A DNA stretch of 64,000 bases from an uncultured bacterium (GCA_965372365.1 CBDVCA010000002.1:936-64935); one strand, 5' to 3'; shown: positions 4,245 to 55,649, counted from the stretch's first letter. The notes: a model not told the origin generated them from the sequence alone. Numbers and translations: made by a program.

Positions 4245-5698
4245 CGCTCTGTTCCGGGGACCGAGTGCCAGTCGGCGACGGTGTCAGTATGACGTGGAAT
4301 CGAAAGCACCAGCACCAACAGCAGCAGTACGGCGAGCGTCTGAGGCTTGTAGGAGTGTGCGACGGTCCACAGCGTCTTGCCGAGCAGTTCCTTCTGAGGC
4401 GCGAGGACGAATAGCGCCGCTGCGCCCAGGGCGATTTTCCGCCATAGTGGTTGCGGCCGGGTCAGCGTGTCACGCATGATCAGAAGCGCCGCCGGAACGC
4501 ACAGCACGAGGTGCTGGCCCCAACAGTAGGGAGATACGATCGCCATCACCATCATCGCGGCCGCCCATTCGGGGGGCAGATCGGCTGGGGCGGTCCGCCG
4601 ACCCCACTTGCGGCGGAATCGAATGGCCAGCGTCAGGCCCAGCAGGGCCGTCAGTCCCGCGGCGATAAGGTTTACGGCGCCATCGGGCAGATCCAGGAAC
4701 TGTACGAACGCCCAGTGCGGCCGGGCGTCGGGGGGCGTGGGCTCGCCTTTGACGACGTCATCGGGATGGGGTACGAACAGTTCGCTGCCGGGGGCGCCGT
4801 CCGGGCGGTAGGTTTGCAGGTACCGGCAGATCGCCAGTTTCAGGCATCGGTTCTGGTGCCTGGCGGGATCGATGCCGTTGGCGGTGGGATGCCCACGAGG
4901 GGCTTGGATGTCTTTGCGAATCTCGGCGCCAAAGATGCGGTGGGCCGCGATGGTCTTGGTCCATCCCAATCCGACCATTGGCGCCGCGACGTTCAACGCC
5001 ACGATGAACGCCGCCATCCATGCGGCCTCTCGCCAGCGGCGTTTGTAGAGCATCAGTGGAAGGAAGAGTACGGGGGTGAGTTTCCAGGTGGCGGCCATCG
5101 CGAGCATGAAGCCGGCGAGAACCGAACGCCGTCTCATGGTCCACCAGGCCGCGGCGGTCAGCATCGCGACCAGAATCAGGTGCAGGCCCGCGTCGTCGAG
5201 GTCTCGCGTGATCCACGGCAGCGTCAGGCCGACGGCGAAGGCGCCGGCCGCGAAGGCGATGGGTTTGTCCATTGTCGCCCCCTTGTGGCCAACCGTCCCG
5301 GCCATGCGACTCCACATCCGTAGCGACAACAGGAGCAATCCCACCGACAGCGCCCAGCAGAGGCCGCGTGTGATACGGTACGAGATCGGTCCGGACGTAT
5401 GATCGATCTCCAAAGCTTCGTCGGCCTCGCCGGTAAGGACCGACAAGGCGCCGAGCGGCGCATTGAGCAGCAGTCGACCGGGCGGATAGTGATGGAGCGT
5501 CGGCGGGCGGTCCGGCGTGAGGTAGGGCTTGCCCTGAATGAAGCCGATCCCCACCTTGAAGTGGAGCAGGAAGTCATTGTGCTTGCGTAGCACGCCGTTG
5601 ACGAACCAGACGCCGAGCACAATCATGAACAGAACCCATGCTGTCCGTCGGAAGATCTTGTTGACGTACCACGCGTGGAACGGCGCCGTGTTCTTCAT
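4241..5698 (-). CDS. Polytopic (~11 TM) membrane protein, putative GT-C-fold glycosyltransferase (DUF2029/GT87-like)
   Basis: ORF runs 4241..5761 (506 aa) with about 11 hydrophobic helices. Function is inferred from topology and from adjacency to a DPPR-synthase-like gene. The upstream ATG at 5761 directly abuts a GC hairpin. The internal start at 5698 (MKNTAPFHAWYV...) is preferred because it is preceded by GGGGAGA 7 nt upstream. Confidence 0.5.
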   Translation of the reverse strand: MKNTAPFHAWYVNKIFRRTAWVLFMIVLGVWFVNGVLRKHNDFLLHFKVGIGFIQGKPYLTPDRPPTLHHYPPGRLLLNAPLGALSVLTGEADEALEIDHTSGPISYRITRGLCWALSVGLLLLSLRMWSRMAGTVGHKGATMDKPIAFAAGAFAVGLTLPWITRDLDDAGLHLILVAMLTAAAWWTMRRRSVLAGFMLAMAATWKLTPVLFLPLMLYKRRWREAAWMAAFIVALNVAAPMVGLGWTKTIAAHRIFGAEIRKDIQAPRGHPTANGIDPARHQNRCLKLAICRYLQTYRPDGAPGSELFVPHPDDVVKGEPTPPDARPHWAFVQFLDLPDGAVNLIAAGLTALLGLTLAIRFRRKWGRRTAPADLPPEWAAAMMVMAIVSPYCWGQHLVLCVPAALLIMRDTLTRPQPLWRKIALGAAALFVLAPQKELLGKTLWTVAHSYKPQTLAVLLLLVLVLSIPRHTDTVADWHSVPGTER

Positions 5699-5828: not shown

Positions 5829-8800
5829 TCAGGGCATTGGAATATTCAGCCCCGTACCGCTCAGTGCGTCGAAGCTGTCGCCTGTCCACGCCGATGGGTA
5901 GCGGCGAGTCCAAGACTGCAGTTTCGGTTGATGCAATCGTCGAACGCGTCTGCGGTTCTCCAGTATGCTCGGGCGACGGTTGGCGGCTTGGACGGGGCCG
6001 ACGTCGGTTGTCTGGGCCTGTTCGGCGGCCAGCAGATCAACCGAATCGCCCAGAACCTTGGCCGGAGGAGCCATCATGGTCCCGAAGTTCTGTTTGAGAA
6101 GGACGAAGTCGTCAAGGTCAACTTTCTGATTGCCGTCGAAATCGCCTTGAGCCCAATTGGAGCCGGTCCCGAAGTTCCGCTTCAAGATGACGAAATCGTC
6201 CAAGTCGACGTCGCCGTCGGTATCGGCATCACCGGCCGTGGCCACGAGGATCTGCGCGGCGTAGTCGTCGCCACCGACGCCGTCGCCGTCGCCATCGAGC
6301 AGGTTCCCGGTCTCATCGGAGACACCCGCGGCGGCGAGGGTGATCGTGTAGTATCCGGCCTGCACGCCAAGGGACGACAGGTCCCACGTTGCGGTGTTGT
6401 TCTGACTGTCGTAGGTCAGGTCGCCCGGCGTCAAGCCCGACAGGTCCACCGGGGTGGAGGTGGTGTCGTTGTGGATCGACAGGTCGCCCACGTCGATCGA
6501 GGCCGAGACGTCCTCGTCGAAGGTGAAGGCCATGCTGGTCAACTCGCCCGGTCGGTCGAGCCCGCCGTTGCGGATCGTGTCGACCACCGTCGGCGACTGC
6601 TGGTCGCTCGGATCGACCATCACATCGAGCGACGCGGCTGCGGTTTCGACTGCATCCTCGGGCACGAAGACCTGCACCGTGTAGACGCCCGGCTCGGCCC
6701 ACGTGTGCGTGACCTGCACCTCGGCCAATACTCTCGGCCCAGGCCCGAACGGCCGGCCGTAATGGACGATCACCGAGCCGGGGGTGTCGAGCCCGTCAGC
6801 GGGGAGCCCGACGGCGACGTCATCGATCCCGTCGCCGTTGGCGTCGGCGCCGCCGGCGAGGAGATGGGTGGAGATAAGCGGCGTCCGCGTCAACTGGGCG
6901 GGGCCCATCTGGAACGGCGTGGTGTCCAGGCCGTCGCCGGAGCCAAGGTAGAGCAGCGTGATGCTGTCGCCGCCGGGCTCGTTGGCCGCGACGAGCAGGT
7001 CACCGAGGCCATCGGCGTTGAAATCTCCAGCCGAGGCCACCTGTCGGCCGAAGTAATTCGCGCCTTCGGGGCCGGTCAGCAGCAGGGGCTGCGGGTCCAG
7101 GCCGCCGGCGGAGCCGAAGTACACAAGAACCGTTCCGTCGCCAGGGGCGCCCAGTGCGACGTCGTCAAGCCCGTCGCCGTTGAGGTCGCCGAGGCCGGCG
7201 ACGCTCGCTCCGAGCATGACCGAGTCGGCCGAGCCCTCGAACATCTCGATCGGCCCGGTCAGCGAAGTGTTCGTTCCGGCGAACAGGCGGACAACGCCTG
7301 TGTGGACGCCGTCGCCGGCAGCCTCCAGCGGGGCTCCGATCAACACATCGTCGCGGCCGTCGCCGTCGACGTCGCCGGCGGCGCCGAGAGCGTACCCGAG
7401 GGCGCCGTTGGCTTGGTCGCCGGTGTAGGTCCAGGCCGGTTCGGTTGACAGGCCTGTGGCGCTACCGAGGAACAACTGAACGCGTCCGGCGCCGGCGATC
7501 TCGATGAGCGTATCGCCGACGATGATCTCGGTGGCGGCGTTCGGGTCCGAGACAAGTACGTCGTCGAACCCGTCGTTGTTGACGTCGCCGGCTCCTGCGA
7601 CCACCGTGGCGTTTTCGGCGTAGATTCCGTCGGTCAGCATCGGCTGGCCCAACGGCGAGCCGAACAGTATGAACACTTGGCCCTGTACCTGGACTTCGGT
7701 CATGCCCACTGTGCCGTCGGGGTAGACGATCGGTACGAGCCGGTAGAGGCGATGGCCGGGCGCCGAGATGGCGACGTCGCCGATTCCGTCGTTATTGACG
7801 TCGCCGGCCGCGGCCACCATTCGCCCGAACTGGGCGTTGTCCTGTGAGCCGTAGAAGGTGAAGGGCTCCGAGACGAATCCTTCGGTGGAACCGGCGTAGA
7901 TCTGCACTCGGCCGGCGTTGATGGAGTCTCCGTCGTCGTATCCGCCTTCGCCCACGATGAGGTCGGCCAGACCGTCGCCGGTGACGTCGACCAAGGCGAC
8001 CGACTGTCCGAATCGGCTGCCGATCCGGTCGGTAGTGATCATGTCCGACGGCCCCGCGAGCATCTCGGTCGGCGCCGGCAGGATCGGGACGCTGAGCGTT
8101 TCGGACGCTCCGTCTCCGTAGTTCACGGTTACGTCCAGGTCGCCGTCAGGATCGAATCGGCCGGTCGTGTCGGTGATGGTGATCGTGAACGTGACCTCCT
8201 CGCCATCGACGATGACTTCGCTGTCCGGCAGGATCTCGATATCCAACGTGTCGCCGGGGTTGATCAGGGCTACCGGCGATTGGATGTCGATACCGACCAA
8301 CTGGCCAACCACCACGTCGGTCAGCGTCAGGGCGCCGCCGGCTTGCAGCGACAGCATGCTCGAGTAGCGGTCGGTCAGCAGTTCCACGCTGCCGGCGATG
8401 ATGTCGCCGGGGGAGGTGACCAGGAGACTGCCGTCGGCCACAATCACGTTGGCCAACTCGACCGAGCCGACCGCGTCGATTTGCAGATCCCCGCGGCCGC
8501 GGATGTCGGCGTCGACGATGCCGACGTCGGTTCGCAGTACGACCCCGGTGTCGGAGGTTATGGTCAGCCGCTCGCCGCGAATCAACGCTTGGTCGCCGCC
8601 GAGGATGGTCTGGGCGGTCATACTGAGATTCAAACCTTCCAGGACGGTTCCGCCGTCGGCGTCGGAGGCGAAGCCGTTAAGCATCACGGCGTCGGTTGCG
8701 ATCAGTGTGGTGTTGCCGAACGTGTTATGGAGGGCGCCGTCGCCGACGAAGATGATGTTGCGTCCTTCGAGGGTCAGGTCGCTGTTGTACAGCCAGATGT

Positions 8801-11800
8801 TCGCCTCGATGATGATATCGTGCTCGGCGATGAGGTGCAGCGGCCCGTCGAAGAGCAGATCGTCGGCCGAGTCGATGACGATGCTCAGGCCGTCGGAGGT
8901 GAGCGTTTCGCCTCCGACGTTGGCGTCGGGCAGGTAGGCGGTCAGTCCGGCCGCCATGGTGAGGGTTCCGCCGATGACGGGGCCGTCGCCGGCTTCCATC
9001 GGAGCGATGCTTCCGACGTTCCTCGCCGCATCGAACAACGCGTCGCCGGTGGCGACGATGTCTCCGACCCTCACGTCGCCCAAGCCCGTCGCGACCAGCG
9101 TCAGGTCGCCGGTATCGACGCCGTCGGCGACGATCGTGCCGTCAGAGAAGACGGACAACTCGCCGCCGTGGACGTTTGTGGCGGTGACCGTGAAGGTGTC
9201 GACGCCTTCGGGGGTCACGTTATGCACGACCACACTGCCGGTGGCGTAGGTGTTGGCCATGAAGATTTCGGCCTGCGTGTAGAGCTCCGCTTCGCCGTCG
9301 GCGGCCACCCAGACCAGCGTGGCTTCCAGCAGGCTGCCCGGGGCGCCCATCACGGGGCCGGCGCCCGCCGAGAGCATGACCGTATCGGCTGAGACGTGGC
9401 CGCCGTCGATGATATAGAGCCCACCGTTGGCGGCGATCTCCACGACGCTGTGGCCGCTGATGCGACCGCCGATTTCGACGGCGTCGTAGCTCTCGATGTG
9501 TACGACGGGGGCGAACAGCCTGGCTTCGTCCAGGCCGGAGACGCCGCCGGTTGCCGCGATCATGTCGATTCGCATAGACGCCGAGATGGCGATGTCGGTC
9601 ATGCGAAGGTTGCCGGTGTCGAGTTGCTCGACCGGCAGCAGTCTGTCGCCGTTGTGGTAAACCTCGGTGAGCAGCGTGGGCGGCGTGACGTAGACTTCAT
9701 TCTCGTGCGACTTGGGATCGTCCAAAGCGATCTCGTGGGTCGGGACCTGATTGAAGATCGGCGTGAAGTCCAGGAACGTCACGAGAATGTCGTCACGTTC
9801 AACGACCTCGATCGCCAGGTCGGCGAGCGTTTGTCCGGGGTACAGTACGATGAGCCGGCCGCCGTCTTGGAGTTGGGCGGCGAGGTCGTCCAGGACGGTC
9901 TGGAAGCTGACGACGTGCTCGTCGTCTTCGGCGTCGCTGGTGAAGAACAGATCGGCTGACGCGAATTCCCGAGCGCTGTCGGCTTTGAGGAATCTCGCTC
10001 GGTAGTCGTCGACGGCGAACAGGTTGCTTTCGATCTCCACCTGTCGGGCCACGCCGGTGTCCTGTCGGATGTCGGTCACCGTCTGGGTCTCGACCTCGAC
10101 GAACGTGCGAACGGTGTAGGCGCCGTCGAAGACGTAGAACTCCGGCAGGGCGCCGGTATCCCATTGGTAGAGGGTTTCGAGGTCGTCGGTGGTGTCGCCC
10201 GGCGTGCCTTCGATGTCGTCGAGGCGCCGGTAGTAGTCCTGTCCGCCATCGGAGTACAGTGCGTGCTGGAGGATATAGAACAGGTCGTCGTCGATGGGCT
10301 TGGTTCCGTTGGCGTCGCGGAAGTAGGTTTGACCGGTTACCGAATGCGTGTAGAGGTAGTAGCCGGAGAACTCATCCTGGGCGACACGGTCGCCGGGATC
10401 TTCGGGCTCGTCGCCGTCCTTCAAGTCGAGGTCCAGTTCGACGTTTCCATTCACCAGCATGGCGTCGCCGGTCAGGCCGAGGGCCTCGATGGTGATGGTT
10501 GTGAGTCCGTCGCCGCCGAGCTGCGCCAATCGCAGATCGCTTTCCAACTGCGATTGCAGGACAAGCATGCCTTCCAAGTCGGTCTGGAGTTGTCCCAGGC
10601 GGTCGATGTCGAGCCACACGCCGTCACGATACCCGGCGGCTGTGTACTGGAGGTCGATGCCGTACTGCAGCGATTGCAGTTCGTGGGCCGCGACGAGATA
10701 GTCGACCTGGAGTTGCTGGAGGGTGACCTCGGCGCCGGCCAAGGCGGTGCGCTGGGTTCCCTTGGTCAGCAGGATGTCAGACAAGTTGCCCTGTATCGTG
10801 GTCTCTTGGGTGTCGAGCCCGGCCAGGACGCTGAGGTGGCCGGTGATATCGATGTTGTAGCCATCGGCGTCGTTCTGCAGGTAGCCCAATTGGAACGTGA
10901 AGTCGCCCTCTTGCTGGACCAGTCCGGGCTCGTCGGCCACGGCGCCTTGGAATTGGGCGTTCAGGTGGGTCCGTTGCGTTTGCAGGGGGGCCAGGTTGGT
11001 CTGGATATCGCCCAGATCGTACGGGAGCTCGCCGTGCGCCAGATCGATTTGTCCGACGACATCCCATCGCTCGGTGGACAGGTTCTGTTGCTGCATGTAG
11101 AGGTCGTTCTGCTGTACAGACAGTTGGCCGATCTCGTCCTCGAACATGCCGGTGGCGTCATTGATGAACCCCTCGATGTCCATTCGCTCGGTACTCAGGC
11201 CGCTCAATTGGACGCCGAGTGCGTCGCTTTGGGCCTGTAGCAGCGAGAGTTCGCCGCCCATGAGTTGCTGGGCCGAGGATAGTTCGGTTTCCAGGCTTTC
11301 GGTGGTCGCCGAGACCTGCGAGTACTGGGTCTGCAGCGGGGCCAACAGGTTGCTCAGACGCGTTTCCTCGCCGCCCAGCAATCCGTCGACGGTGTCGACG
11401 ATGCCCGTCACGGTGTTCCGGTCGGCGATGAAGCCGGCCTCGATCGACTGCAGATGCTGGAGGGAGTGGTCGTCGTATCCGATCATGTAGAGTTCGTACT
11501 CGATCACCGACGCCTGATCCTCCAGTTGCGTCTCGTCGGCGTACAGGCCCTGCAGGGTCACGTTGAGATCGTCGCGTTGGGTCATCAAGTTGAGGATGTA
11601 GTTGCGTTCGGTGGTCAGTGAACCCACTTGGCCCTGCCAGTAGCTTCGGTCAGACAACAAGTCGTTTCGCATCTCATCAAGGGCGTAGCGGTCCGTCGGC
11701 AGTTTCGGGTCGTATGCTCCGTCGCCGCCCTTATTCTTCATGAGCTGGTACGCCTGCGACGTTTCCCCGCTCTTGTCCAACTGCGTGAGCAAGACGTCCC

Positions 11801-14800
11801 GTAGCGACTCCAGATCCGATTGGCCGAGCTTAGCGAAGGTCCGCAGGAACAACGCGTCGGAGATCTCGCTCAATTCGATGTCGTACCCATCACCGAACTG
11901 GAGGTGTCCCAGGTTGAAGTACTCCCAGTCGATCGGGAAAATGTGGGCCGGCTTGGTCGGGTTGGGCTTGCCGCCGGAGCCGATTCGCTCCTCGACTTGG
12001 CCCAGCCAATACTGCAGGCGAGGCAGCATCGGGGATCCCTGGTACCCCAGATAGCGGTAGGCGACCTTGTAGAACTGCAGGTCCACTCTGTCGAGATTAT
12101 CGTTAATCGCCGCCACATAGCTATTCGCCTGGCTCAGATCGTATTCGACGGTCTCCAGCGGACGCTGCTGGTTCAGGCTGGCCAAGACCACGTTGAGAGC
12201 CGACTCGTTGTTGTAGATATCCTGCCAGACGATGTTCAGGTTTTCCCAGATCAGGTTCAGGTCCTGGGTCCAGACGATGGCGGTCTGAACGGTGGACAGG
12301 TCGCTCAGGATCGTCGACAGCATATCGAATTGGCCGAGCATGTTGACTTGGGACGTGATCGCCGGCGAGAGGGTCATCTGTTCCACATCGCCCATGTTCC
12401 GCAACTCTTCGTCGAGCACCGACGGGTCGGAGACGCCTCGCCACGTCTGGACGGTCTGGAGCGTTTGCTGGAGCGGGGAGATCTGTTGCCAGAGCCCCGA
12501 CAGTTGGGTTTGCAGGCTGTAGTAGTTCTCGTACCCGTCTACCGCGTTGATTGTCGACTGCATCGACGGGCTGAGCAGGTCGGCGTATTGCGACAGGCCG
12601 CGGACGCCGGAGTCGAGGGCGGAGAAGTCGGTCGTCCACTGCAGCCACTCGATCTCATAGGTCGCCATGCCGACTTGGCCTATGTCGTTGTTGACGATGT
12701 CGATGTCGGACTGAACCACGGTGTAGGTTCGCGTGGTGCTCAGGGCGCTGATGGCGTTCACCAGACTCTGGGTCAGCACGCTGTCGTACGTCGCCAGCGC
12801 CCGGACGCCCGGATCGAGGTCTTCGTACAGTTGCAGGCCCCACAGTATGTAGACGGCGTCGGCGGCGTTCTGCACCAACGTTGCCTGGTCATTGACGATC
12901 TGGATGTCGGTATCCACATTCGCCAACGACCGCACCTGCAGCGCCGCGATGACGTCGCTGACAGTGTCTCCCAGCAGGGCGGCGTGGTCGTCGCCCAGCG
13001 CCAGGAGCAGTTGGTCGATCACGGTGGGGTCGGTGACGCCCAGAAGGATGCTGATATCGTCGATCGCCGCTTCCATCGGGATGATCTGGGCGTCGAGGGC
13101 CGCGATCTGTCCGGGCAGGACGGTGATGAGATTCTGGACGATCGCCAGGTCGTCCTGCACGAAGGCCAGGTCGCCCTGGTTCTCGTAGATCTGCCATTGG
13201 AGTGACGACTCCTGGTTGGCCAGGTCGTACAACTCCATGGAGACGGTGTCGAACCCTGAATCGACGGTGGCCAGGAGGCGTCCGAGTTGATCGTCGCTGA
13301 GGCCCCCGAGATCCAAGGCGTTCAGCGCCCCCAGGTCGAGGGCGGCGGTCTCGGGGTTGATCCCCGTTGGCGGTACGTAGTTGGGGCGGCTGAGGATCTC
13401 GTCGTTGATGCCGGCTCTGACGGCGTCCAGCCCGCCCTGGAAGCTCTGGCTGTCGAGGATTGTCGTCTGGAGGTCGCCCAGTTGCAGCGTCAGGTCGGCG
13501 GTGTCGCCGCCGATCTGCCAGATCTGCGACTGTACGCCGCCCAGGAGGCCCTCGACGCTGCTCAGCAGCGACTGGGTCTGGTTACGCTGCTGGATGAGGG
13601 TCGCGTAGCCGGGCATCTGGTCGATCGTATCGGGCCAGGTGTCCTGCACGGCCAGCATGTCGCCGATATCGGCGAGCTGGAACTGAATCTGCTGGCGATG
13701 GATATCCAGCGGCACCCGGATCAACTGCTGAATCTGGCTGTCGAGAAGCTGGCCGAGGACGACGCCTTGGCCCGCTTCGGTGGTAACGCCCATCGCGGCC
13801 AGTCGCTGCCACGCGGCGACCGTGTCGATCTGATCCTGCAGATTCGCGGCCAGCGCGTCGAGCAACTGCTGCTGCTGGGAGAGCGTCTGGTTGACCACGC
13901 GGAAGCCGGGGAAGTTATCGGCCTCGCCGAAGAGGTTCACGTTGCCGCCGCTGCGGAGAGTGACCTCGCCCAGCGAACTGAGCTTCCCGGCCAGCGTCAA
14001 ACTGCTGGCGGCGTTGACCGACAGACTGGCTGCGTCCAGGTCGACCGGCCGGCCGAGCGAACTGATCGTGCCGAGTGTCTGGAGGTCCAATTCGCCGCCG
14101 GCCCTCACGTGTCCGGTAATCACCAGATCGGCGTCCGGGGTGAGTGTGATCAGTGAGACGCCGGCTCCGGCGACGAGCGAGTTGGCCGCACCGTTGGACT
14201 CGACGTACAAGCTTCCCAGTTGCGACTGGAGCGTCAGTTCGGCGCCCAGACCCGGCGCCAGCGCCCGTCCGACGATCAGCCCGTTCTGAGCGGCCACGAA
14301 GACCGAGCCGAGGTTCGCGTTGACCATCCCGACCCTGACGCCCGGGGACATTTCGCCCACGCCGTCGACGTCGAGAATCTCCACCAGACTGCCGTCGATG
14401 GAGTTGGCGATCGTCACCTCGTTGACGGCCGTCATGAGGCCGGTGATCGAACCTCTGGCCATCGCCATCAGCGTGCCGGCGACGATGCTCGGGGCGGGGC
14501 CTTCTCCGGCTTCGGTGGGGATGGAGAACTCGCTGATCGGCAGGGTGAGCCCGCCTCGAATCTCGCCGTCGGCGAACAGTTGGACGCGGCCGGCGGAACT
14601 GAACTCGCGCGAGAACGTGAACAGATCGCGTGCTTCGCGTTCGACGGTTTCGGGGTCTGCGCCTCCGAAGGAGCCCTCGTACGCCAGGCCCAACAGCCCC
14701 AGCACCTGCGAGTACATCGTGAAGGCGACGCCGGCGGTCATGTAGGCGCCGTTGGCGGTGAAATCGCTGATCGCGATGGCCCGCAAGTCGCCGGGTTCGT

Positions 14801-17800
14801 CTCGCACGTCGTTCTCGAGTTCGACGAAGGTGATGGGCAGGCCGAACTCGTCCAGGATGGGCTCGCCCGCCGAATCCAGCAGCGTCGAGATGAACTCGGC
14901 GGGGATGCCGGCCGGATCGATCTGGCGCAGGAGGCCGTTGAGCATTTCAAGTCGAATCGCCTCGGCTTCGGCGTCGTCGGCGGCGTACACGCCGCCGGTG
15001 ATCGAGCCGACGGTGATCGTCCCGCCGCTGCCGCCGGTGGTCTGGAGGCGAATGACGTTCGCATGAGGCGCGGCGCCCGACGTATTCCAGTCGGTCAGCA
15101 GTGTGACGTTCTGAGCGTCGATGTCGCCTGCGTTGACGATGGTGATATCGCCGTCGAGGATCTGCACGTTCGACAACACCAGGGCGCCGACCGAACTGGT
15201 CACGGTCAGGTCGCCTTCGGTCCCCACGTCGATGTTCAACGTGTTGGCTTCGGTGGTCAGCGTGGTCGGCCCGAAGGTGCGAACGGTCAATTCGTCGGCG
15301 ATGACGGCGCCGTCGGGATGGGTCATCTGGCCGTAGACGGTGAGGAACACGTCGGCGCCGCCGGCGGCCTCGATATCGTGAACTTCGAGCGTGACGCCGG
15401 CGAGGCCGATGGCTTCGGCGATCAGCGTGATGTCGTTATCGTCGGAGCCGCCCAGCGAGCGGATCTCGGTGGCGATGACGCCGCCGCCGATCGCCGAAAT
15501 GGTGATCGGCCCATCGGCGGTCTGAACCTGCGTAAGCGTCAGCCCGGCGGTATCGGGGCCGTCGCCGCCGGCGAGACCGACGATGTCGCTGTCCTTCAGG
15601 ATAATGGCGCCCGGGCCGGTGACGACGGCGCTGACCTCGGCGACGTGGAGGTTCTCCAGCGTGATGCTCCCGCCGGCGATCACGCCCAAGGTGACGGCGA
15701 CGAGGCGTCCGCCGGTGCCGGGGGCGTCGTCTTCGGTCGGCGCCATCTCGGCCGCGGCCTGGATTACTTCGCCGGCCGGGGCCGACAAGGTAATCGTGGC
15801 GGCCTGCAGTTCGGCGTCGATCAGCGAGATGTCCCCGGCGATGCTTCCGGCGGTCAGTGAGATTGTGCTACCGGCGCCCGACGCCAGCAGGAATCCGCCG
15901 ATGGTCGGTCGCAGATCGTCGTCGCCAAACATCGTCTCGGGCGTCGCGGCCGGATCGTGTATGTACACGCCGCCGGCGCCGTCGGAACCGGCCTCGACGG
16001 AAACGCCCTCCAACGCCTCGATGGCGGTGGTGATGATGACGTTGTCGCCGGCGGTGACGGCCACGTTGTCTCGGGCGAAGATGGCCCCGTTGATGACGAT
16101 GGCTCCGTCGGCGTCGATGGAGATGTCCTGGACGGGGTCGCCGTCTTCGGCGGGCGCCTCGGCTCCGAGGGTCCGCAGTTCGGCGGTTTCGCCGACGGTG
16201 ACGGCGCCGGCCGCGGCGTCGATATCGATCGCTTCGTCGGCATGGAGGTGGATCATGTCGTAGACCTTCGGGTCGACGGGCATCGGCTCGCCGACGACGA
16301 TCGATCCGGCGGCCGAGTTCACCGTAATGGCCCCGCCGGGGGCCGAAGCGTCGATGCCGGCCCGAACGAGGATGTCCGTCCCGGCGTTGATGTCGATGTC
16401 GCCGGAGGCCGACAGCGTGTCATGATCGAAGATCGACAGTTCGGTCAGTCCGTCGGCGGCCACGGCGCTGCTGGCGTAGTCCAGTCGCTTCTCGGTGGTC
16501 GCGACGTATCGCCAGTTGGTGATCTGCTCCATCTTGATGACCGGTACGATGCTCTCGATGGTTTCGTAGAGCGGACGCTTGTCGACGATGTCGTGGGCCT
16601 GGGTGAACGCCCGGTAGGTGATGTTCGTCCGCACGTCTTCGATGTCCCGCCAGTCGGTGGTCATCTTGTAGATATAGTCGTGCTGGGTCTCGCCGGTATC
16701 GTAGGCCGGAAGACTCCAATCGGGCTCGCGCTCGTAGACGGCGTGAAGCTCCTCCACGCCGTTGAGATCGTTCCACAGCCCCGAGGTCCACATCTGCAGG
16801 TGGTCTTCGTCGTTGTAGGGGCCTGCGTTGTTGGGCTCGTTCGGGTGGAAATTACTGTAGCCTGTCCAATTGGCGATCCAGCCGTTGGCGACCCGATCCA
16901 TCGACCAGGAGTCGTGGCTGAGGCCGTTGATGTTGTACCCGCCCAGCCAGACCGGCGAATCGATCATGTCGCGGACCAGGTCGTTCTCGGCCTGATCGTT
17001 GATCACCACCAGATGCCAGGGCCAGGAGAAGAGGGCGTTGGCGTCGTCCCAGTCGTACATGTAGTACGACAGGTAGTAATCCCTGCCCTCGAATCGGCGG
17101 ACGTTGGCCACGTCGTCCTCGTGCCTCGCCGAGTCGTTGAGGAGTTGGAGGTTGATGTTGGCCTGCTTGACGGCCACGCCGGCCTCGGCGTCGCCGGGGT
17201 TGATCTGGGCGTACACCCGTCGTCCGAACATGTCTACGTCGTACTCCCAGTTGCCGCCGGTGAACCCCGAGACGTTCCCGTACTCGTCGACGGTTCCGGC
17301 GTCGCCGAGGTTCCAGTCCTCCGGTAGCCAGTCGACTTTCACCGAACTGTCGTAGGTCGTCGCCGGCAGATAACCCAGGCCGTCCATCAGGAGCGTCTGG
17401 ATGATCAGGTTGGTCTCCTCGGAGGCCGCCTCGGTGGAGAAATTCGCGGCGAGCAGTTGGAGCAAGCCCGTGTAGACGCCGGCCACATTTGGCATCGACA
17501 GTTCGTTCGCCGACCGCCCGTCATAGATGCTCCACTGCTCGTAGGCGGTCGGGTCGTCGTCGGTCCAGACGTTGTGCGGGGTGTCCCTGTAGGTTACGAC
17601 CCACCGGCCCGGTTCGTTGTCGTAGTCTTCCAGCACCCACAGGTCACCCTCGACGGGGTTGCTGGGGGCGCCCTCGGTCAGCGAGGACCACTCCTGGATG
17701 TATTCCAGTTGTGCGACTTCGCGAACCTGGCCGACCAACTCGTACTCGTTGATGGTGTTGCCCACGAACTGCAGCTTCTTGGCGTCGGATTCGACGCTGT

Positions 17801-20800
17801 CGGCGCCCAGGGCGGTCACCTCGTACTCGGTCCACCATTGCTCCGGCGCCCGGACGTAGATGTCGGTTCCGTCGTCGAGCGTGTAGGGGTACACGTTCCA
17901 CTGCTGGGTGCTGAGGTCGACTTCCCACAGTTGGGCGGTGGGGATGCCCTGGTAGTTGCGGTTGATCCGCCCGAGGGCGACTTCGGTCCCATAGACCTTC
18001 TCCCATCCGTAGTTGCCGAGGATGGTGTCTTCGCGTTCGAAGAAGCTGGCGATGTAGATGTACGTGCCCGTGGTCTTGGCGGGGTTGCTGTACTCCTCGC
18101 GGTAGTCGCGCCCGGCGATGAAGAAGGTATCCGACCATTCGAGCAGGACGCTCTCGTAGTCTGTGGGGTCGACGCCTTCGAGCAGTTCCTCAACCCTATC
18201 CGACGGCGGCAGCCAGTGGCGGTAGGCGGCCTCGGCGACCGAGTCGTGTTCGATGGGATCATAGTGCTCGTCCCGGTCGAACGGCGTGAACTCCGGGAAC
18301 CAGAAGTCGAAGTACTTCTTGGTGACCGTGTAGCTGTCGGTGTAGATCCTCCAGTTCGGCCCCGCCAGCATCAGCGTCTCCGACGGCGTCGCCTGGAACC
18401 TGCCCTCGACGATCACGCCCGGTACGAACGTTTTGGATCCGACGCCGTCGTCGACCAGCACGCCGGACAGACCCAACGCCGACTGGCCGGCGAAGGCGAA
18501 TTCGCCGGCGGCTTCGGCCATGGCTTCGGCGATCCCCTCAGCGTTCTCCTCGTCATCGTCGGTGGCGAACACCAGTGAAACATTGGTGACCACCGTGACG
18601 CTGTCGTCCTGGGAAAGGTCGAAGATGGACCTGTCGTTGAGCTGCTGGTACACGCCGAGGTCGTCGGCAAGCCTGTGCTGGGTCAACGGATCGTAGGTGT
18701 AGATCGTCTTCTCGAATTCCTGGATGAACTGCACGTCGAAGAGCTTGCGGTAGTTCTTGCCGCCGCCGGCCAGGATGGCGGTGGCCTTCTCGCCGGCGGT
18801 CAACTCGTCCCAGGGCTTGTAGGGCTGTTGGACGTAGGAGCCCTCGATGAGGGCGTGGACGTCGTTGGCCATCATGTCCAGCACATCGCCGTAGGAAGCG
18901 GAGTCCTGGCTTGCGAACAGGTCGATGATCAGCTTTCCGTCGCCGCCTTCGGTGAGCGCCATCGCGCCGCCGTCCTGGAAGATGCCGCCCATTTGCGGAT
19001 CGCGATCATTGCGGAACGAACTGATCGCCTCGTTGACGGTCACGCCTTGGGCGAACGTCGTTCCCGGGTCGATGACCGGACCCTGGTAGTCGGTGACCGC
19101 CCGAATCAGTTCGAACATGTCCGGGTCGATCGGCTCGAATGCCGGTTCGCCGCCAACATCCAGCAGCAGGAACAGGCCGCCGTCGTCGTCGGGCGCCTTG
19201 CCGGGCCAATCGAGATCGTCGATGACGTAGTCGACGCCCGGTACGAAGTACTCGCGGAACTTGTCGGCGGCCGGCACGTTCTCCGACCAGTACCCGTCCT
19301 GGAACAGCCGCACTTCGGCGCTGCCGAACTCGCTGCCGACCTTCACGCTGATCATGTCGGTCTGCTCGGTCGTGATCGTCGGGATGTAGTGCACCACCGG
19401 ACGCTCGATGAAGCTGTCGGCCACACGATTGGAGCCGGTGACCACGTCGATGTAGACCGGCTCGTAGGTTATGTACGCCGGGGCGAACTGCAGGTCGTCG
19501 TTCATCGCGTCGTCGTAGGCCAGCAGCGTCACCTGGCCGGGGGCGTCGACGGTGATGTTTCCCGTCGCGGCCGATTGGAACCCGGCCGCCAATTTGCCTT
19601 CGGCGGCGATGACCACCGAACCGGCCGAATCGACCAGACCGGCGTCGACGTCGATATCCGCACCCGAAAGCACCTCGCCGCGAATCACCACGTGCCGGTT
19701 CGCCTGAAGCGACGCCAACGCCGGGTCGGCTCCGCCGTTGCGTGTTTCGCCTTCGACGGCCACGGTGCCGTAAACGTTAATGTCGTCGCCGATCAGCGAC
19801 ACCTGGCCTTGGGCGGCCACTAGCGCCCGGAAGTAGTACACCTGGCTGCGAGCTACGTAGACGGTTCCGCCGACGTCGGTGGCCGTCAGCGTCGTATGGG
19901 AGTCGGGAGCCCGGGCGATGGTTACACTCTCATCCAACGCCCAGACGTTGGCGCCTGTCACGTTGATTATGTCCTGGGCGTTCACCAGGGCGTCGGTCGT
20001 GATCTCCACGTCCGATAGCGACGTCAGATCGACTTGCCGTACGTCGACGGTCGACTCGCTCGCGCCGCCGTCGAGCTTCACCAGGCCGACCATGCCGTGA
20101 ATCCAGATGTCCTGGTCGCCGGTGACAACGATATGCCCGGCCGGGCCGGTGGTGTTCAGCACGCCGCCGCTGCGGCGGGCGGGCAGGTCGACCATGACCG
20201 GACCGGTCGTCGTCATCAGTTCGGCGATGCTGAGCTGGATCTCGCCGCCTTCGAGGCGATCGGCGCCCGGGACGCGGGCTTCCAGAACGAGGGGATCCTG
20301 CACCACGCGATTCCCGCCGGCGACCGGGGCGTCCAGGTGCGTCAGCGGTACGCCGTCGGCGCCGATAAGCTCGCCGCGGTCGTTGATGAGGTCGCCGGTT
20401 TGATTGATCAGGGCGCCCTGGTCGCTGATGAGATTGCCGTACACATCGGCGCGATAGTCGATTCCCAGGAGGTTCAGGACGGTCCAGTACTCCCCGGCGC
20501 CGTCGTTGAGCAGCGTGCCGGAGCCATTGAGCAGCAGCCCGTTGACGGCGATTAAGTAGCCCTTGGAACTGATCAGATCCAGATTCGTGTCGATCAGGTT
20601 GCCGGCGGCGTCCACGCGGTCGCCGTAGACATTGATCGCGACCCCAAATTCGTCGATGAAGTTGCCGTTGGGGTCGATGAGGTAACCGAACTCATTCATC
20701 AGATCCCCGTCGGCGTTCAGTCGCCGGCCGTCCACGTTGACGACGCGGCCTGCGGCGTCGAGATACTGGCCGATCTCGTCAACCAGGAACCACGCGCCGC

Positions 20801-23800
20801 TGACATCCTCGACGAGTTCATGGCCTTCCTTGTCGACGGTGACCGGGTCGCCGAGATCGTTGTACGTGATGTAGACGATGCCGGCGCCGAGGACTTCGAC
20901 GCCGCCTTCGGTGGCGCGGATCGGGACGCCGCCGTCGTCGACCACGACCTCGTCGAGGCCGTTGACTTCCAGCACGAAGCCGTAGTCGTCCACGAAGTCG
21001 CCGTTCATATCGATGGCGAAGTCGACCACGGCGCCGAGCGTGGTGGTGGCCGCGGCGGTTTGGGTTTCGTATAGCAGCTTGTCGACCCACACGCTGATGG
21101 CCTGTCCGCCGGCGAGCGTGGCGCCGGTGAGCGTCAGGTCGCGCCCGGCTTCAACGTGTCCGCTGACCCACAGCAGGCCCTCGCCGGAGACGATCGTTAC
21201 GTCGGAGTTGGGATCCATCGCCTGGATCGCCCCGAAGATGTTCACGCCGTCGCCGGCGTTGACGTTGATCGAACTGGGGGTGGGCAGCCCCTGGCTATCG
21301 GTGACGATGGCGCTGAGTTCGTTGACGGTGAACAGTTGCGCGCCGCCGCCGAGCACCTGGACGTCGACCAGGCCGGTCGCCTGGACGTACGATCCTCTGG
21401 TGATCGGGTCGCCTTCGTTGGCGGCCAGGCCGGCGGCCACGTCCAGATCGGTGGCGATATCCGGCCCGCCGAAGGTGACGGTGTCGGTTGCGACGATGCT
21501 GATCCCGGCGTTGTCGCCGCTCCAGGTCAGCGTGGACGGATCGCCGCCGTTGGCCAGGCGGCCGCGTTCGGCGCCGGCGTGGAGGGAGCCGATCATATCG
21601 AAGGTGGCGCCGCTGATCGTGATTCGGCTGTCGGCGTCTCGGGTACGGACCTCGCTGGCCGCGGCCACATGGACGCCTCCGGCGCCGGCGAGCAGCAGAA
21701 CGTACTGCGAACCGACCACGGCGGCGCCAAGTGGGAAGGTGTCGCCTTCGGTGAGGTCGCCGAAGACTTCCCCTTCGGCGAGTTCGCCGGTGGCCCCGCC
21801 GATGGTGATGCCCGGCGAGACGACCCGCACCTGTTCGCCCGGTGCGGTCAGGAAGTCGGTGGCTTCGGAGACGAACTCGAAGGTTTCCACGCCGCCGGCT
21901 TCGACCGAGCCGGTGATGGCCAAGGCGGTCGGCGAGTTAATCAGCACCGAGCCGAGGGCGTCGACGTCGCCGGTGAGGACGACCTCGGTGGCCGCGTCGA
22001 TCACGACTTCGAAGTTTTCCGGCAGCGGAGCGTTCGGGTCGGCCGGGGCCGGGGCGGCGAGTCCGGCGTTCTTGATCACGCCGTTGACGGTGATAACGTC
22101 GCCTTCCAGGACGATCCGGCCGTTGGTCTCCAGCCAGCCGCTCTCGGCGGTGACCAGTATGTCGTCGGTCTGGCTGACCACGTGGATATCGCCGTAGGTT
22201 CGGGGTTCTTCCTGCTGCAGCGAGCCGATGGGTCCGTCGACCACGACGCGTTTGTAGCCGTCCAGTTCGATGGTCTGAGGCGGGGCGGCCCCGCCGGTGG
22301 TCCCCAGCCAGGCGGTCGCCTCGAGGGTGATGCTGTCGGCGCCGGCCGCGGCGGCCAGGACATGACCGGCGGAGATGAGGATATCGCGTTCAGCGTGGAT
22401 CATGCCGCTGATGGTCAGCGTATCGTCGGCGGTGAGGATCACGTCGCCTTCGGTCCCGCCGGCGGTGAGATCGCCCTTGAGATGGCCGTTGGCGCCGAGG
22501 TCGAGGATGATGGGGCCGTCGATGGTCTCGAGGAAGCCGGACCAGTCGAGTTCGAGGCCTTCGGGGCCGCCGCTCATCTGAATCATCGCATCGCTGCGGA
22601 CCGAGCCGGCGATGTAGAGTTTGGCGTCGGGGTCGGTCGAGGTGAAGCTGACGACCGAGCCGTTGGCTTCGGCGATGATATTGAACGGTCGCGACGATAC
22701 GCGCGTCTGGCCGTCGGCCACCCGGTCGAGGCCGAGGTGCTGTTCGTTGGCGCCGGTGAGGGTTTGCAGCGCCGGGGCCGGGTTGTGGGGGTTGCTGAAC
22801 GTCGGATAGATACGGAACTCGTACTGGCTGGCGAACAGCAGCTTGCCATGCTTGAACTTCACGCGGACGATCGGGTCGGCGGCGCCGCCTTCGGTAATCG
22901 GGTCGTCGGCGAAGTCGTCCGGGTCGTATGGATTGCCGTCGAGATCGAAGAAGCTGCCGCCCCGGATGGCGCCGGGGATGGCTCCGTTGAGGGCGTTCTG
23001 CACGTCTTGCACCAGGGCGGTAATCTGGTCGCCGGTGGGATTGTCGGAGGTCGAGATGGCCGGGATAGTCACCTCGCCGACGATCTTCTTCACGCCGAGG
23101 TTCACCCAGACGACGACGGTGACGTCTTCGGGGATCTCGCCCTTGTTGCTGGCCCGGTTGGCCTCGATCACCTCGTTGGGCATGTCGGTCATGCCCAGCA
23201 GATGCTCGTTTTGGGAGGAGTATTCCAGTTGGAATTGCTCGAAACTGACCAACGAGAATTTCCCGCCGCGGTACTCGGCCCAGACGTCCTGACTGCCGAT
23301 CGTCAGCAGCAGGGCGTCGTTGATGTCCTCGAGGAGATCGTCGATGCTGGTGTTGTCGTCGGTGTCGGAGGCGTAGATGGTGACGGTGTACTCGTCCACC
23401 GGCGCGGCGGCGGCCAAGTTCGCCGGCAGCATTCGCAGGTCGAGCGTGACGTCCTCGCCGAAGGTCCGCCTGGGCGGCAGAACCTCGTCGGCGGCCAACT
23501 GCTGGCCGATTGGCGGCAGGACGGCGATGGCGATGTTGCCTGGCGTGACGTTGGTGAGGCCGAGTTCGGCGGCGGCGATTGAGCTATTGCCGTCGATGAA
23601 GAAGGGCGCGTCGCCGGTTAGAACCAGGTCGTACTGCTGTGTGGTCTCATTGAGTCGCAACTGGGCGACGATGTATTGCCCGGCGTACGTGCCGATCGGA
23701 TCGACGTGGCCGGCCTGATAGATCGGCGTAGCCGCCAGCGCCGTCTGAATATCCAGCAGCAGGTCGGTTGCGGAAGTGTTGTCGGCGGTGTCGGTTTGAC

Positions 23801-26800
23801 GCACGAGGACCTGTGCGGTCAGGAACACGCCTGGGCCGGTGTTGATGACCAGTAAGAGCGTGGCGTCGGCGGCGGTTACGCCGTCGCCGGGCAGGGCGGC
23901 GGGGGCGTCGATCTCGTAGTCCGGGACGGTCGCCGAAGAGTTGAGTACGCCTTGAGCGAAGCCCAACTGATCCAATTCGTCGGTAGGCCCGCTGGTGAGC
24001 GTGAAGTCGATGTCGCTGAGCAGGACGATCCGCCCGGTCGCATCGGCGGCGGAACCGACGCCGGAGCCGCCGGGGGTAGCTTCGAAACCGCCGACGGCGG
24101 TCGCGCGGATGTAATCGCCGAAGAACTCTCCCGGATGGCTCGGAATCGCCGTCGCCGCCAGCGCCACATTGATGTCGCGGACCAGGTCGGCGATGCTGGT
24201 GTTGGCCACCGTGTAGGGGGTCTCGCCGTTGGTGTCGACTGCGAGCACCGTTACCGAACCGACGCCGCCGTCGCCGCCGTCGAGCGACAGTTGCAGCGTG
24301 ATGTCTTCGCTGAGCACGCCGTCGATCATGCTGTCGACCGGCAGCACCCGGTACGTCTCCGGCGGACGAACCGCGGCCTCTTCGGGGGCGGCGATGATCG
24401 TAACGCCCAGCAGGTGGGCGTTGGTCGAGTCGTCGCCGATCGAGAAGGCGTGGGGGCTGGACAGCACGATTGCGCCGGCGTCGACGTAGGCGGTAATTTC
24501 GCGGAACCCGCCGCGGATCAACGCCGCCGTCACATCCTCAGCCAGGGCGGCAAGCGAGTCGGCCTCGGTGGCCCCGGTATTGTCGATCGTATCGGCCCGG
24601 AAAATCGTGATCGACCCTTCGACCACGGTGAAAACGTCGCGATCGATCTCCAGGGGCAGATCGGGCGAGAGGCGGATCGGGTCGTCGTTGGGATCGACCA
24701 GGGCTCGGACGATCGTGAGGGTGACGTTGTCGGGGAGGATGCCGGTGGTCCACAGATCCTCGTCGGGGGTGATGTCGAAGACGGCGTCGGGACGGACGGA
24801 GGCCGCGTCGGCCCCGTCGTAGACGCCGGTCAGACCCAGCAGGTCGGCCGCGGCGGACGTGGCGTAGACGTCGAAATCGACGGTCATGCTCGTGAAGGAG
24901 AGCGTCCCGCCCACGTCGGCGACCTGGATATCGAACCCGGCCGCGGCCAGGGCGGCCTCAACGTCCGCCGCTAGGTCGGCGACGGTGGTGTTGGCCGGAC
25001 CGCTTGTTCGGTCCGTGTCGGCGCGGGCGATGGTGACCGACGCTGTGGTGATAACGTCGTCGCTGTCGACCGCTTCGATGTCGAGCGTGACGTCCTGGGC
25101 GAGGACGCCGGTGGTCGGCGCGTCGCGTTCGCCGATCAGTTCGAATACCGAAGGCGCCCGGAGAGCGTTGACGCTTGCCCCGCCGTCGAGGGTCGTCAGG
25201 CCCAGCAGGTTCGCGTTGACCGAAACGGCGCCGTCGAGGGTGTAGTTCCATCCGCTGACGAATTGGATTCGATTGCCGTCCAAATGCGCCCGGATGCCGG
25301 GGAATCCGGCGAGGGTCAACGCGGCGTTCACATCGACGATAAGATCGGCCGGCGTTGTGTTGGTGGGGTCGACGGCGATCGTCACCGGGGCGGTTTCGAT
25401 CATGCCGTTGCGGTTGACCATGACGTCCAGCGTGACCGGATCGGTCAATACGGCGGCGGGGATATCGGCCTCGCCGGTGATGTAGGCGTCGTAGAAGATC
25501 TCCGTCGCCGGCAGTTCGTCGCCGCTGGTGAGGCCGACGAGTTCGAGATCCCCCGAGGCGACCTTGAGCTTGAATTCGTGCGCGCCGGTCAGCAGGATCT
25601 TGCCGTCCCGCAGCGATGCGGTGATGTAGTCGGCGAAGTCGCGGCCGCCTTCGTAGCGAGGAATGGCTGTCGCCGCCAGTTGGGCGTTGATGTCGTCAAC
25701 GAGATCGGCCAGACTCGTGTTCAGCGTCGTGTCGCCGACCGGTACGATGACCGCCCCGAGCAGTTCGTCGTCGATGTCGGTTTCTTCGATGCGGAGGATC
25801 AGCACCAGATCGCGAATCAACTGCCCCGTCGTCGGTACGGGCGCGTCGGGGGTAAGCACGGCCGGGTCGCGATGCTCGACGGTGTCCCAGTCGCCGCGAA
25901 GGCCCAGCAGGTTGACGTTCTCGGAGGTGTCGGCGATCTCGAAGTCGTACCCGAGCGTGCTGAACACGATCTTGCCGTCCACCTCGGCGGCCTCGATTGC
26001 GGCGAAGGCGCTTGTCGCGAGTTGGGCGTTGATGGTTGCGATGAGTTGGGCCTGGCTGGTGTGCAGGGCGGTCAACGCGGCCGGGATGATTACCGAGCCG
26101 GTGATCTCGCCGCCGAGGCCGTCGTCGATGCTGAGAACGAGCGTGACGTCTCGCACCAGTCGGCCGGTGGTCGGCAGGGCGACATCGCCGTGGATTTCGG
26201 CCTCGGGGTAGACGATCCGCGCCGTCAGCACGCTGGTGAGGCCCAGCAGGTCGAGGTTGACCGACGACATCAGCAGGTCGCCGGAGATCGGCAGGACGCT
26301 GAAGTCGTACGGCGCGTGGAGGATCAGCGATCGGCCGGTCCAGGTGGCGTCCATGTCGCTGAAGTACGTGCTGTCTTCCAACTCGTCGTCGAGCGTGACG
26401 ATGACCAGTGCGTCGTTGCCGTAGTCGCCGGCGTCGAGGGTTACGATCTCGGTGAAGTACCCCCCCGACCCGTCGCGCCGCTGTAGAAGGATGTCCACGT
26501 CGGCCGGCAGTACGCCGAGCAGCTTGAATTGGCCTTCGCCCACGAGGTAGGCTCGCGGGCCCTTGGCCCATTCGTTCGGTTCGATCTCGTGGAAGTGGGT
26601 CGGCGAGAGCACCTTGATGTCGTTGACGCCCTCGATTTCGATGTTGCTGAATTCGCCCCACGTTTGCACAAGGGCCGACCCGTAGATCAGCACGCTGGCG
26701 CCGGTGAAGTTGAACGGGTCGAGCGGATCGCCGACCAGAGGATCGGCGCCGCCTTCGATGTGAATCAGATCGCTGGCCTTGATCGTGGTGCCGATTCTCA

Positions 26801-49313: not shown

Positions 49314-49484
49314 GCTGGTTGCGGCATCGGTTGGCGGCGTCCGTTTCCATCGCCATAGCAACGGCTATGGCTGCTTCAACGTCCTTGCCAGCCTCGTCCT
49401 CACCGACGCCTGAACACGACATCTATTATGCAAAGTGCTCTAGCCAGGCCATACGGTTCGTTCCTTACTGTGGAGCGAACCATT

Positions 49485-55611: not shown

Positions 55612-55649
55612 CAGTCACCGTGCTCGATCATCATAGGCCGTTCGTTTTT

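Follow-up and report, generated by a model that had tools for sequence, protein, structure and literature searches.

We analysed a 64,000-nucleotide stretch of DNA from an uncultured bacterium (GCA_965372365.1 CBDVCA010000002.1:936-64935), referred to below in its full length as the window. A single giant open reading frame (ORF) occupies positions 5829..47126 of its minus strand and, by ORF listing and translation, encodes a protein of 13,765 aa that holds all the parts described here, each of them therefore on the same strand. The start of amino acid i is window position 47126-3(i-1), so that window 8300-16000 corresponds to aa ~10376-12943. Within this region lies a Gln/Leu-rich, predicted all-alpha segment of 1,130 aa (10497..13886; aa 11081-12210), recognized by its composition, by an AlphaFold2 (AF2) model computed with a multiple sequence alignment (MSA), by hydrophobic autocorrelation at heptad spacing and by its relatives. 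Two paralogous beta-type modules lie on either side of it.

Composition and boundaries of the helical segment

Read from the translation, the segment begins at aa 11081 (window 13886), where '...FRVVNQ' runs into 'TLSQQQQLLDALAANLQ...' (with 'TLSQQQQLL'), and ends at aa 12210 (window 10497), where '...LRLAQLGGDGLTT' (with '...LGGDGLTT') is followed by 'ITIEALG...'. The preliminary description of this DNA had placed a change of composition at ~13900 and ~10500, a few codons from these positions, and the helical segment of about 1,100 aa that it had proposed in between measures 1,130 aa, with 81% helix in the AF2 model with MSA. Gln makes up 10.8% of the segment as against 2.6% of the rest of the protein (4.1-fold), which renders it the Gln-richest of all 1,130-aa stretches of the giant protein, and Leu is mildly raised (15.0% versus 11.4% elsewhere). 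The epithet 'Q/L/A/E-rich' is thus appropriate for Gln and Leu but not for Ala and Glu, which are depleted (0.73x and 0.89x relative to the rest), and the contrast with D/G/T/V-rich flanks has the right direction but is mild, these residues being present at 0.71-0.93x.

With Lys and Arg together accounting for less than 4% of its residues, the segment is unlike classic charged coiled coils; its polar heptad sequences, poor in charged residues, resemble those of extracellular coiled coils, the trimeric kind included. This agrees with the outcome of a sequence-profile search against the PDB, which returned only weak, generic coiled-coil matches, headed by coronavirus HR1 (E 4e-5) and including reovirus sigma-1, phage short tail fibre, lamin, Rad50 and SMC. 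Pfam and NCBIfam gave nothing but sub-threshold noise on the segment (COG2_N 0.005; ASRP 0.021, the latter an overlap with coiled coil that scores 13.5 bits against a cut-off of 300), and the helical segment contains no catalytic or binding signature.

A conserved heptad core with recurrent breaks

Given a 15-sequence alignment of the family (A1), AF2 models the segment with a mean per-residue confidence (pLDDT) of 69.7, with 721 of 1,130 residues at or above 70 and with 81% of them in helix. In a run on the single sequence the pLDDT is 32.7, and even with A1 there are 199 residues that stay below 50; these low-scoring stretches fall at insertions specific to the window's protein. Hydrophobicity along the segment is autocorrelated at lags of 7, 14, 21 and 28 residues (0.20, 0.14, 0.09 and 0.06; expected standard deviation ~0.03), the flanks have no peaks at these lags, and a profile built from the homologues only, with the query excluded, gives stronger values (0.33, 0.22, 0.16 and 0.12). 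Positions that are hydrophobic in the query are hydrophobic in 69% of cases in the relatives, as against 16% elsewhere, at an overall identity of only 22-33%. Such retention of the hydrophobic core at low identity indicates that it is under selection. A check of the heptad register led to the same picture helix by helix: hydrophobic occupancy of a/d-type positions is 0.6-1.0 in most predicted helices (0.5-1.0 overall) and 0.13-0.38 at other positions, the 3.5-residue periodicity of the two longest helices is significant against shuffled sequences (p<0.002), and ~40% of the segment falls in 28-residue windows above the 99th percentile of shuffles.

These data also bear on whether the segment could instead be an intrinsically disordered, low-complexity, Gln-rich linker. 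The single-sequence pLDDT, the 199 residues that remain poorly modelled and the lack of a Pfam family would all be in keeping with such a linker. However, the hydrophobic heptad pattern is position-specific and conserved at 25-30% identity, which argues against disorder; most residues reach a pLDDT of 70-90 once the MSA is supplied; the break points and a central element described below are conserved; and the low-scoring stretches coincide with the protein-specific insertions. We give disorder hardly any credence. On the model and the conserved pattern, we conclude that the segment is a structured all-alpha module of amphipathic helices with a heptad core, of either the coiled-coil or the bundle type.

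The segment is not one unbroken coiled coil, because it contains 88 Gly and 28 Pro with no Gly/Pro-free run longer than 57 aa, because it is modelled as ~30 helices of mostly 10-51 residues, and because it carries helical-hairpin repeats of 67 aa, a central non-helical element and ~20 Gly/Pro positions that are conserved among relatives and coincide with predicted helix breaks. The only three long helices of the model (69, 126 and 94 residues) all lie in the C-terminal third. Fully extended, a helix of this length would measure ~135-165 nm, and these features lend no support to the suggestion of a single extended coiled coil of more than 100 nm.

The same features weigh on the related possibility of an extended, parallel coiled coil of more than 100 nm formed between two or three molecules, as in the stalks of trimeric autotransporters or M proteins. 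The heptad periodicity is certainly real, the polar, low-charge composition is of the kind mentioned above, and the profile matches to HR1, sigma-1 and short tail fibre are all to trimeric coiled coils. The segment also shares with YadA-type stalks the principle of a heptad-based coiled coil in a surface adhesin. Nevertheless, trimeric autotransporter adhesins always assemble as parallel trimers and carry a beta-barrel anchor at the C-terminus, and neither this anchor nor YadA head or stalk motifs are matched by Pfam or NCBIfam in aa 10001-13765, so that the kinship with trimeric autotransporters that had been evoked does not hold. In addition, the frequent Gly and Pro residues, the ~30 helices, the hairpin repeats and the globular central element argue against a parallel homotrimer, and oligomerization of an internal segment of a 13,765-aa chain would be sterically demanding. 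We therefore regard a parallel oligomer as very unlikely.

Internal anatomy of the segment

The segment can be divided into six parts (segment numbering plus 11080 gives protein numbering). The N-arm (segment 1-248; 13143..13886; aa 11081-11328) is made of heptad helices of ~33-44 residues separated by conserved Gly/Pro breaks and contains one Pro-rich loop (segment residues 167-197). It is followed by four tandem helical-hairpin repeats of ~67 aa (segment 249-517; 12336..13142; aa 11329-11597), each made of a first helix of ~28 residues and, beyond a turn, a second one of 17+11 residues, with the motif D.G[LV]R.L..Y..LLSP. A hidden Markov model (HMM) built from the motif instances recovers the copies with E values of 2e-15 to 2e-22; relatives carry 2-6 copies, and the window's protein has one more than most of them. 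The pre-central helices (segment 518-653; 11928..12335; aa 11598-11733) are 51, 41 and 16 residues long.

Next comes the central, non-helical or mixed element (segment 654-732; 11691..11927; aa 11734-11812), the proposed apex of a fold-back arm. It comprises W.YF, a short beta hairpin and LP.T in the pattern W.YF...G...LR.(D)LL...LP.T, and AF2 places strands at segment residues 661-671. A central break compatible with a hairpin had been named as something to look for, and this element is such a break, conserved in the relatives. It occurs in the family in two sequence types (relatives P0003, P0004, P0010 and L002), one reading 'W.YFD...LR.DLL.SWGKGNK...LP.T', the other shorter with 'YDP.RGG...'; the window's copy belongs to the former type but is devoid of the SWGKGNK loop. 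It has no relative in Pfam or the PDB and no CxxC motif.

Beyond this element, the post-central part (segment 733-956; 11019..11690; aa 11813-12036) consists of long helices, of 69 and 126 residues in the model, and the C-arm (segment 957-1130; 10497..11018; aa 12037-12210) of long heptad helices with no conserved Gly or Pro in its interior. An internal duplication of ~117 aa (segment 817-933 versus 934-1050, both with 'LAPLQTQ' and 'L[ST]TER') spans the two parts and emerges from profile self-alignment. Self-blastp detects no internal repeats in the segment, whereas motif-seeded HMMs and profile self-alignment do.

The segment belongs to a conserved C-terminal cassette

The core of beta-type module A (15027..15326; aa 10601-10700), which ends in ...NVTLLTDWNTSG..., and that of module B (8307..8606; aa 12841-12940), which ends in ...SVELLTDRYSS..., show a significant match to each other, and to no other part of the giant protein, by both blastp and HMM searches. 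They share 33-36% identity over 73-80 aa (blastp E 1e-6 to 5e-6), and an HMM of the two copies finds no third. The modules are hence paralogous, as had been surmised, over a length limited to ~100 aa. The strings originally quoted for them are both present, at aa 10672-10705 and 12912-12939, but the one given as 'IIAEAIGLAGVTLEV' in fact reads 'LIAEAIGLAGVTLEV'. Neither core is adjacent to the helical segment, that of A lying ~380 aa upstream and that of B ~630 aa downstream. The modules have no sequence match in Pfam (recognized beta-helix families included), NCBIfam or the PDB, and hydrophobic autocorrelation in the flanks near a lag of ~20 is weak (0.14-0.16). Judged from sequence, the two modules may plausibly be beta-helices.

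Directly after the helical segment comes a conserved domain (9627..10496; aa 12211-12500; 'ITIEALG...VAQDEFSGYYLY...') that is 32-36% identical to four relatives (alignment A2) and follows the pattern I(R/T)IEALG ... VAQDEFSGYYLY ... YYRD ... DD.LY. No sequence relative of it was found in Pfam, NCBIfam or the PDB, and peptide patterns taken from it served to retrieve all related loci. Downstream of module B lies a region of FG-GAP repeats, i.e. repeats of the integrin-alpha propeller type (6867..8129; Pfam FG-GAP E 2.3e-23 in 6 stretches, FG-GAP_3 E 7e-14).

Searched exhaustively with HMMER, a set of 1.84 billion representative proteins contained no more than 17 relatives of the segment (E 5e-48 to 9e-5; 27-44% identity). 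Each is a fragment of a very large protein, and at source they are labelled 'hypothetical protein', with one 'VCBS repeat-containing protein'. A word-indexed protein search proved uninformative for such Q/L-rich sequence, as it returned no matches even for alignment A1, which holds proteins of the searched collection. The C-terminal ~3,500 aa of the giant protein (aa ~10005-13574) are collinear with the relatives and with eight genomic or metagenomic loci in the order lectin-type region, module A, helical segment, 'VAQDxxSGFYLY' domain, module B and FG-GAP repeats, which all of the ~13 relatives keep from module A onwards. Most of the relatives stem from metagenome-assembled genomes (MAGs) of Planctomycetota; the named genomes are MAGs of Thermoguttaceae, Planctomycetaceae, Phycisphaerae and Anaerohalosphaeraceae, and one of Candidatus Eisenbacteria. 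Three relatives (P0006, P0007 and P0009), fragments of the same cassette, are deposited under MAGs of a Candidatus Methanomethylicaceae archaeon, of Myxococcota and of Burkholderiaceae, on contigs of 1.5-5.6 kb; they are likely to be mis-binned contigs of planctomycete type.

The helical segment is found in every one of the ~13 relatives at a length of 761-1,130 aa and has diverged more than its surroundings (identity of 22-33% versus 32-38% for the flanks). It is an integral, ancient part of the cassette and, since every relative carries it, an insertion event between the modules cannot be demonstrated. We found no description of the segment or of the family in the literature; the family is undescribed, and the segment has no detectable sequence similarity to the helical stalk proteins PrgA, UmbC or Ebh/Embp, with which it is compared below.

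Evidence for and against a fold-back arm

The preliminary description had raised the possibility that the helical segment folds back as an antiparallel hairpin and thereby brings the two beta modules together. This is the best-supported, if tentative, reading, by virtue of length co-variation and structural matches. We measured the sub-regions in ten independent lineages, with motifs and HMMs as anchors. The N-arm is constant in length (~248-260 aa), as is the C-arm (~161-192 aa, mostly 174), and the central element ranges from 52 to 99 aa. The pre-central part (0-170 aa) and the post-central part (81-224 aa) vary together (Spearman 0.72, permutation p 0.012, n=10 lineages); a misplaced central anchor would yield a negative, not a positive, correlation. 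Correlated shortening on either side of the central break is what a fold-back hairpin with the break at its apex predicts. Furthermore, with the hairpin repeats left out, the two strands total 384 and 398 residues in the window's protein, and they are still balanced (~247 versus 255) in the shortest relative, P0003.

Structural comparison of the AF2 model with Foldseek points in the same direction. The top matches in the PDB are MukB (1.3e-6 and 2.3e-6) and condensin Smc (8e-5), followed by Smc5/6 (4e-4), JetC (8e-4) and, in sixth place, the enterococcal PrgA stalk; lower down come Rad50, dynein stalks, the Umb1 toxin particle, TcA toxins and XaxB/PaxB. In the viral library BFVD the matches are SMC/Rad50/SbcC-like proteins and tape-measure or minor tail proteins.

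If this evidence is taken together, the constant N-arm (~250 aa) would pair with the constant C-arm (~174 aa), and the variable pre-central helices with the variable post-central ones. The small non-helical element at aa 11734-11812 would then sit at the tip of the arm, and the four 67-aa hairpin repeats would form a knob on the ascending strand. With ~385-400 residues per strand at 0.148 nm per residue, minus kinks, the arm would project by ~40-55 nm, with the two beta-rich modules held together at its base. A different pairing, in which the two longest C-side helices pack against each other, was rejected, as P0003 is short of most of the post-central helix and retains a full C-arm of 174 aa. 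As for function, the arm may play a passive, mechanical role, whether as a stalk on which the tip element is displayed or as a spacer or hinge controlling how the upstream lectin/beta-helix parts are placed relative to the downstream beta-helix/FG-GAP/dockerin parts, and its length-variable distal portion would tune the reach.

Several observations weigh against this arrangement. The TM-scores of the Foldseek matches are 0.05-0.28 and the root-mean-square deviations 13-90 A, so that the matches show only long helices packed in antiparallel; the MukB match, for instance, has an E of 1e-6 but a TM-score of no more than 0.12. The predicted TM-score (pTM) of the AF2 model itself is 0.31, and erroneous back-folding of long coiled coils by AF2 is on record, for example in UmbC1/2 (PMC11062931). 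Leaving out P0003 lowers the length correlation to rho 0.62 (p 0.08), and the ten lineages carry no phylogenetic correction. The N-arm is cut by a conserved Gly or Pro every ~42 residues, whereas the C side has conserved Gly/Pro-free stretches of ~150-170 aa; owing to this difference in spacing, the breaks on the two strands are not obviously matched, and those of the N side are too numerous for a pairing of break positions by eye to be informative. Finally, the two sides of the central element differ by 88 aa in the window's protein, the post-central one being the longer.

Alternatively, the chain could traverse the segment once, through a series of local helical hairpins or three-helix bundles, and form a linear rod in the manner of spectrin or Ebh/Embp, which would space the beta modules apart instead of uniting them. 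Many helices of the segment are indeed 30-45 residues long with very short, conserved Gly/Pro turns, each 67-aa unit is plainly helix-turn-helix, repeats of ~67 and ~117 aa occur within the segment, and the helical-bundle rod of the giant surface proteins Ebh and Embp provides a precedent (PMC7587433). However, a rod leaves unexplained why the pre- and post-central lengths vary together while the outer arms are fixed; the conserved, break-free helices of ~150-170 aa on the C side are too long for bundles of ~40-residue helices; and there is no Pfam match in the segment to bundle repeats of the Spectrin, FIVAR or GA type (~106-170 aa). We consider a linear rod possible but doubtful.

The lower-ranking Foldseek matches to TcA toxins, XaxB/PaxB and the Umb1 toxin particle (E 0.02-0.15) would suit yet another role, that of a membrane-active or pore-forming alpha-helical module, similar to a Tc-toxin shell or to XaxB/PaxB, which rearranges to enter a target membrane. 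These matches reach TM-scores of at most 0.19, no transmembrane-grade hydrophobic stretch is present (maximum 19-residue Kyte-Doolittle mean 1.47), and we detected no toxin domain or partner genes, all of which makes a pore-forming module highly improbable. As regards a fold-back of the whole segment into an arm of ~40-55 nm at whose base the beta modules meet, we infer the pairing topology and the length from indirect evidence and rate the chances as about even.

The giant protein and its surroundings

Pfam coverage of the giant protein is almost nil, with no match in aa 1-5000 or 7500-10000, and its content amounts to one RTX block, FG-GAP and weak PKD, Big_5 and dockerin. The RTX nonapeptide block (31128-31232, minus strand; aa ~5299-5333; Pfam HemolysinCabind E 1.8e-9) lies mid-protein, far from the helical segment and away from the C-terminus. 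Instead of a C-terminal RTX block with a secretion signal, the C-terminus is of the FG-GAP/PKD/Big_5/dockerin-like type (Pfam/NCBIfam), with a dockerin-like double Ca-binding repeat (6087..6236; Pfam Dockerin_1 E 0.014, i.e. below the curated cut-off), and ends in a basic tail. Taken by their domain content, the FG-GAP, PKD/Big_5 and dockerin-like parts and the RTX block near aa 5300 are hallmarks of a surface or adhesion protein, and the giant protein may be exposed at the surface. It speaks against such exposure that there is no classical signal peptide at the annotated N-terminus and that the 64-kb window contains no components of a type I secretion system (ABC, membrane fusion protein or TolC genes) or other secretion genes near the giant gene.

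The N-terminal region has the motif 'EALEPRLMLS' (46962-46991, minus strand; aa 46-55), which occurs once only across all frames of the window and has no classical hydrophobic signal peptide ahead of it; LE.R.LL[SA]-type motifs are common at the N-termini of large secreted planctomycete proteins. This motif, the C-terminal dockerin-like repeat and a G+C content of 65% all fit a planctomycete, which judged from sequence features is the likely source. The ORF, at 41.3 kb, exceeds the largest planctomycete gene of a 2016 survey, the 36.2 kb gene of Fuerstia marisgermanicae (PMC5177795).

A Leu-rich region (~40227-45929, minus strand; aa ~400-2300; 18-25% Leu) contains a degenerate motif of ~25-35 aa, h.L.DL(V/L)..GL(V/I), as in 'ATLRDLVEAGFV' and 'LASLHDLVDRGLI'. 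Self-blastp misses these repeats, and the sole Pfam match in the region is a sub-threshold one of helix-hairpin-helix type; the region may, from its motif, be another helical repeat array. Beyond the giant gene, a minus-strand ORF of 1,275 aa (49485-53312) with no Pfam match is overlapped by plus-strand ORFs at 49428-51155 and 51477-52970, likewise with no Pfam match. A minus-strand redox gene cluster upstream of the giant gene (54025-59436) encodes a NuoF-like protein (Complex1_51K + NADH_4Fe-4S), a NuoE-like fusion of 2Fe-2S thioredoxin-like and Fer4 domains, and a Fer2_4/Fer4_20/pyridine-nucleotide-disulphide oxidoreductase, and is followed by an MFS transporter (52889-54367); cluster and transporter appear unrelated to the helical segment. 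The neighbours as a whole comprise SNF2 helicase, UbiA, GT87, MFS, NuoF/E-like, PQQ and NHL proteins.

Discussion

The proposed architecture recalls, in its geometry, the arms of SMC, MukB, Rad50 and JetC. These are antiparallel coiled coils of great length, formed within one molecule, interrupted in places and capped by a non-helical apex element; they have several hundred residues per strand, comparable to the arm proposed here, and provide the top Foldseek matches. However, the giant protein is without ATPase head, hinge or hook. The regular expression [AG]xxxxGK[ST] finds no Walker A motif in the whole 13,765-aa protein, no SMC_N, AAA, hinge or zinc-hook family is matched by Pfam or NCBIfam, the TM-scores do not exceed 0.28 and the context is apparently that of an extracellular adhesin. 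The resemblance is geometric only, the segment is not a member of the SMC/Rad50/MukB superfamily, and a kinship with the SMC proteins that the preliminary description had been reminded of is not supported.

Helical stalks of bacterial surface proteins offer a second set of comparisons, nearer in function. Enterococcal PrgA (PDB 6z9l) is a surface protein with a helical stalk of ~40 nm, by which a domain is displayed at a great distance from the cell (PMC10588982). The arm proposed here is likewise long and helical, but it is an inner part of a 13,765-aa chain with beta modules on both sides, whereas PrgA is a Gram-positive LPXTG protein of 0.9 kDa per nm, has a protease-like domain at its tip and shows no sequence similarity. 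The secreted Streptomyces protein UmbC has two paralogous sets of repeats and two coiled-coil domains that come together in a stalk of ~30 nm (PMC11062931). With its Foldseek match (8w20_A) it is the closest architectural analogue of paralogous modules combined with a coiled-coil hairpin; it differs in that the flanks of the segment are ALF-free beta-type modules, in that no toxin domain or UmbA/B partners are detected, and in phylum and size class, again with no sequence similarity. Ebh and Embp, finally, are giant (~1 MDa) staphylococcal surface proteins with an alpha-helical, non-Ig-like extender of tandem bundle repeats (PMC7587433). The likeness lies in the alpha-helical extender of a giant surface protein, but their rods are linear and built from 40-50 near-regular three-helix-bundle repeats of 126-170 aa, whereas the segment has only 4 x 67 aa and 2 x ~117 aa repeats, very long helices and a central break. 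Given these precedents, the architecture can be called unusual, as it had been, for giant RTX/FG-GAP proteins of the Gram-negative type, while other surface or secreted proteins of bacteria do have helical stalks or rods.

It is conceivable, though we put it forward as a tentative proposal that may well prove wrong, that an SMC-style fold-back arm has evolved independently as an extracellular mechanical element, mainly in giant proteins of Planctomycetota. Such an arm would combine fixed proximal arms, an elbow-like knob of hairpin repeats, a distal arm of tunable length and a conserved tip domain; it would hold the paralogous beta-helix modules at its base and reach ~50 nm to a ligand or partner via its tip.

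A hallmark of Planctomycetota is the possession of giant genes, which presumably code for surface proteins and almost entirely lack annotation (PMC5177795; bioRxiv 10.1101/2023.11.21.568195). The present analysis defines a conserved C-terminal cassette of ~3,500 aa in about a dozen giant proteins, with a heptad-based helical arm at its centre. We see the arm as a structural curiosity that resolves no long-standing question; the segment is probably a helical stalk or arm of a bacterial surface protein in an undescribed family, and such stalks are already known elsewhere. At ~125 kDa, however, the segment is a tractable recombinant target for electron microscopy and small-angle X-ray scattering and offers a first structural handle on planctomycete giant proteins. 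If it does fold back, a coiled-coil arm would be used where other large Gram-negative adhesins use Ig-like extender domains, as an independent solution to the problem of reaching across a distance at the cell surface. And if independent evolution were borne out as well, surface 'arms' of this kind would make up a new family, unrelated in sequence to any described protein.

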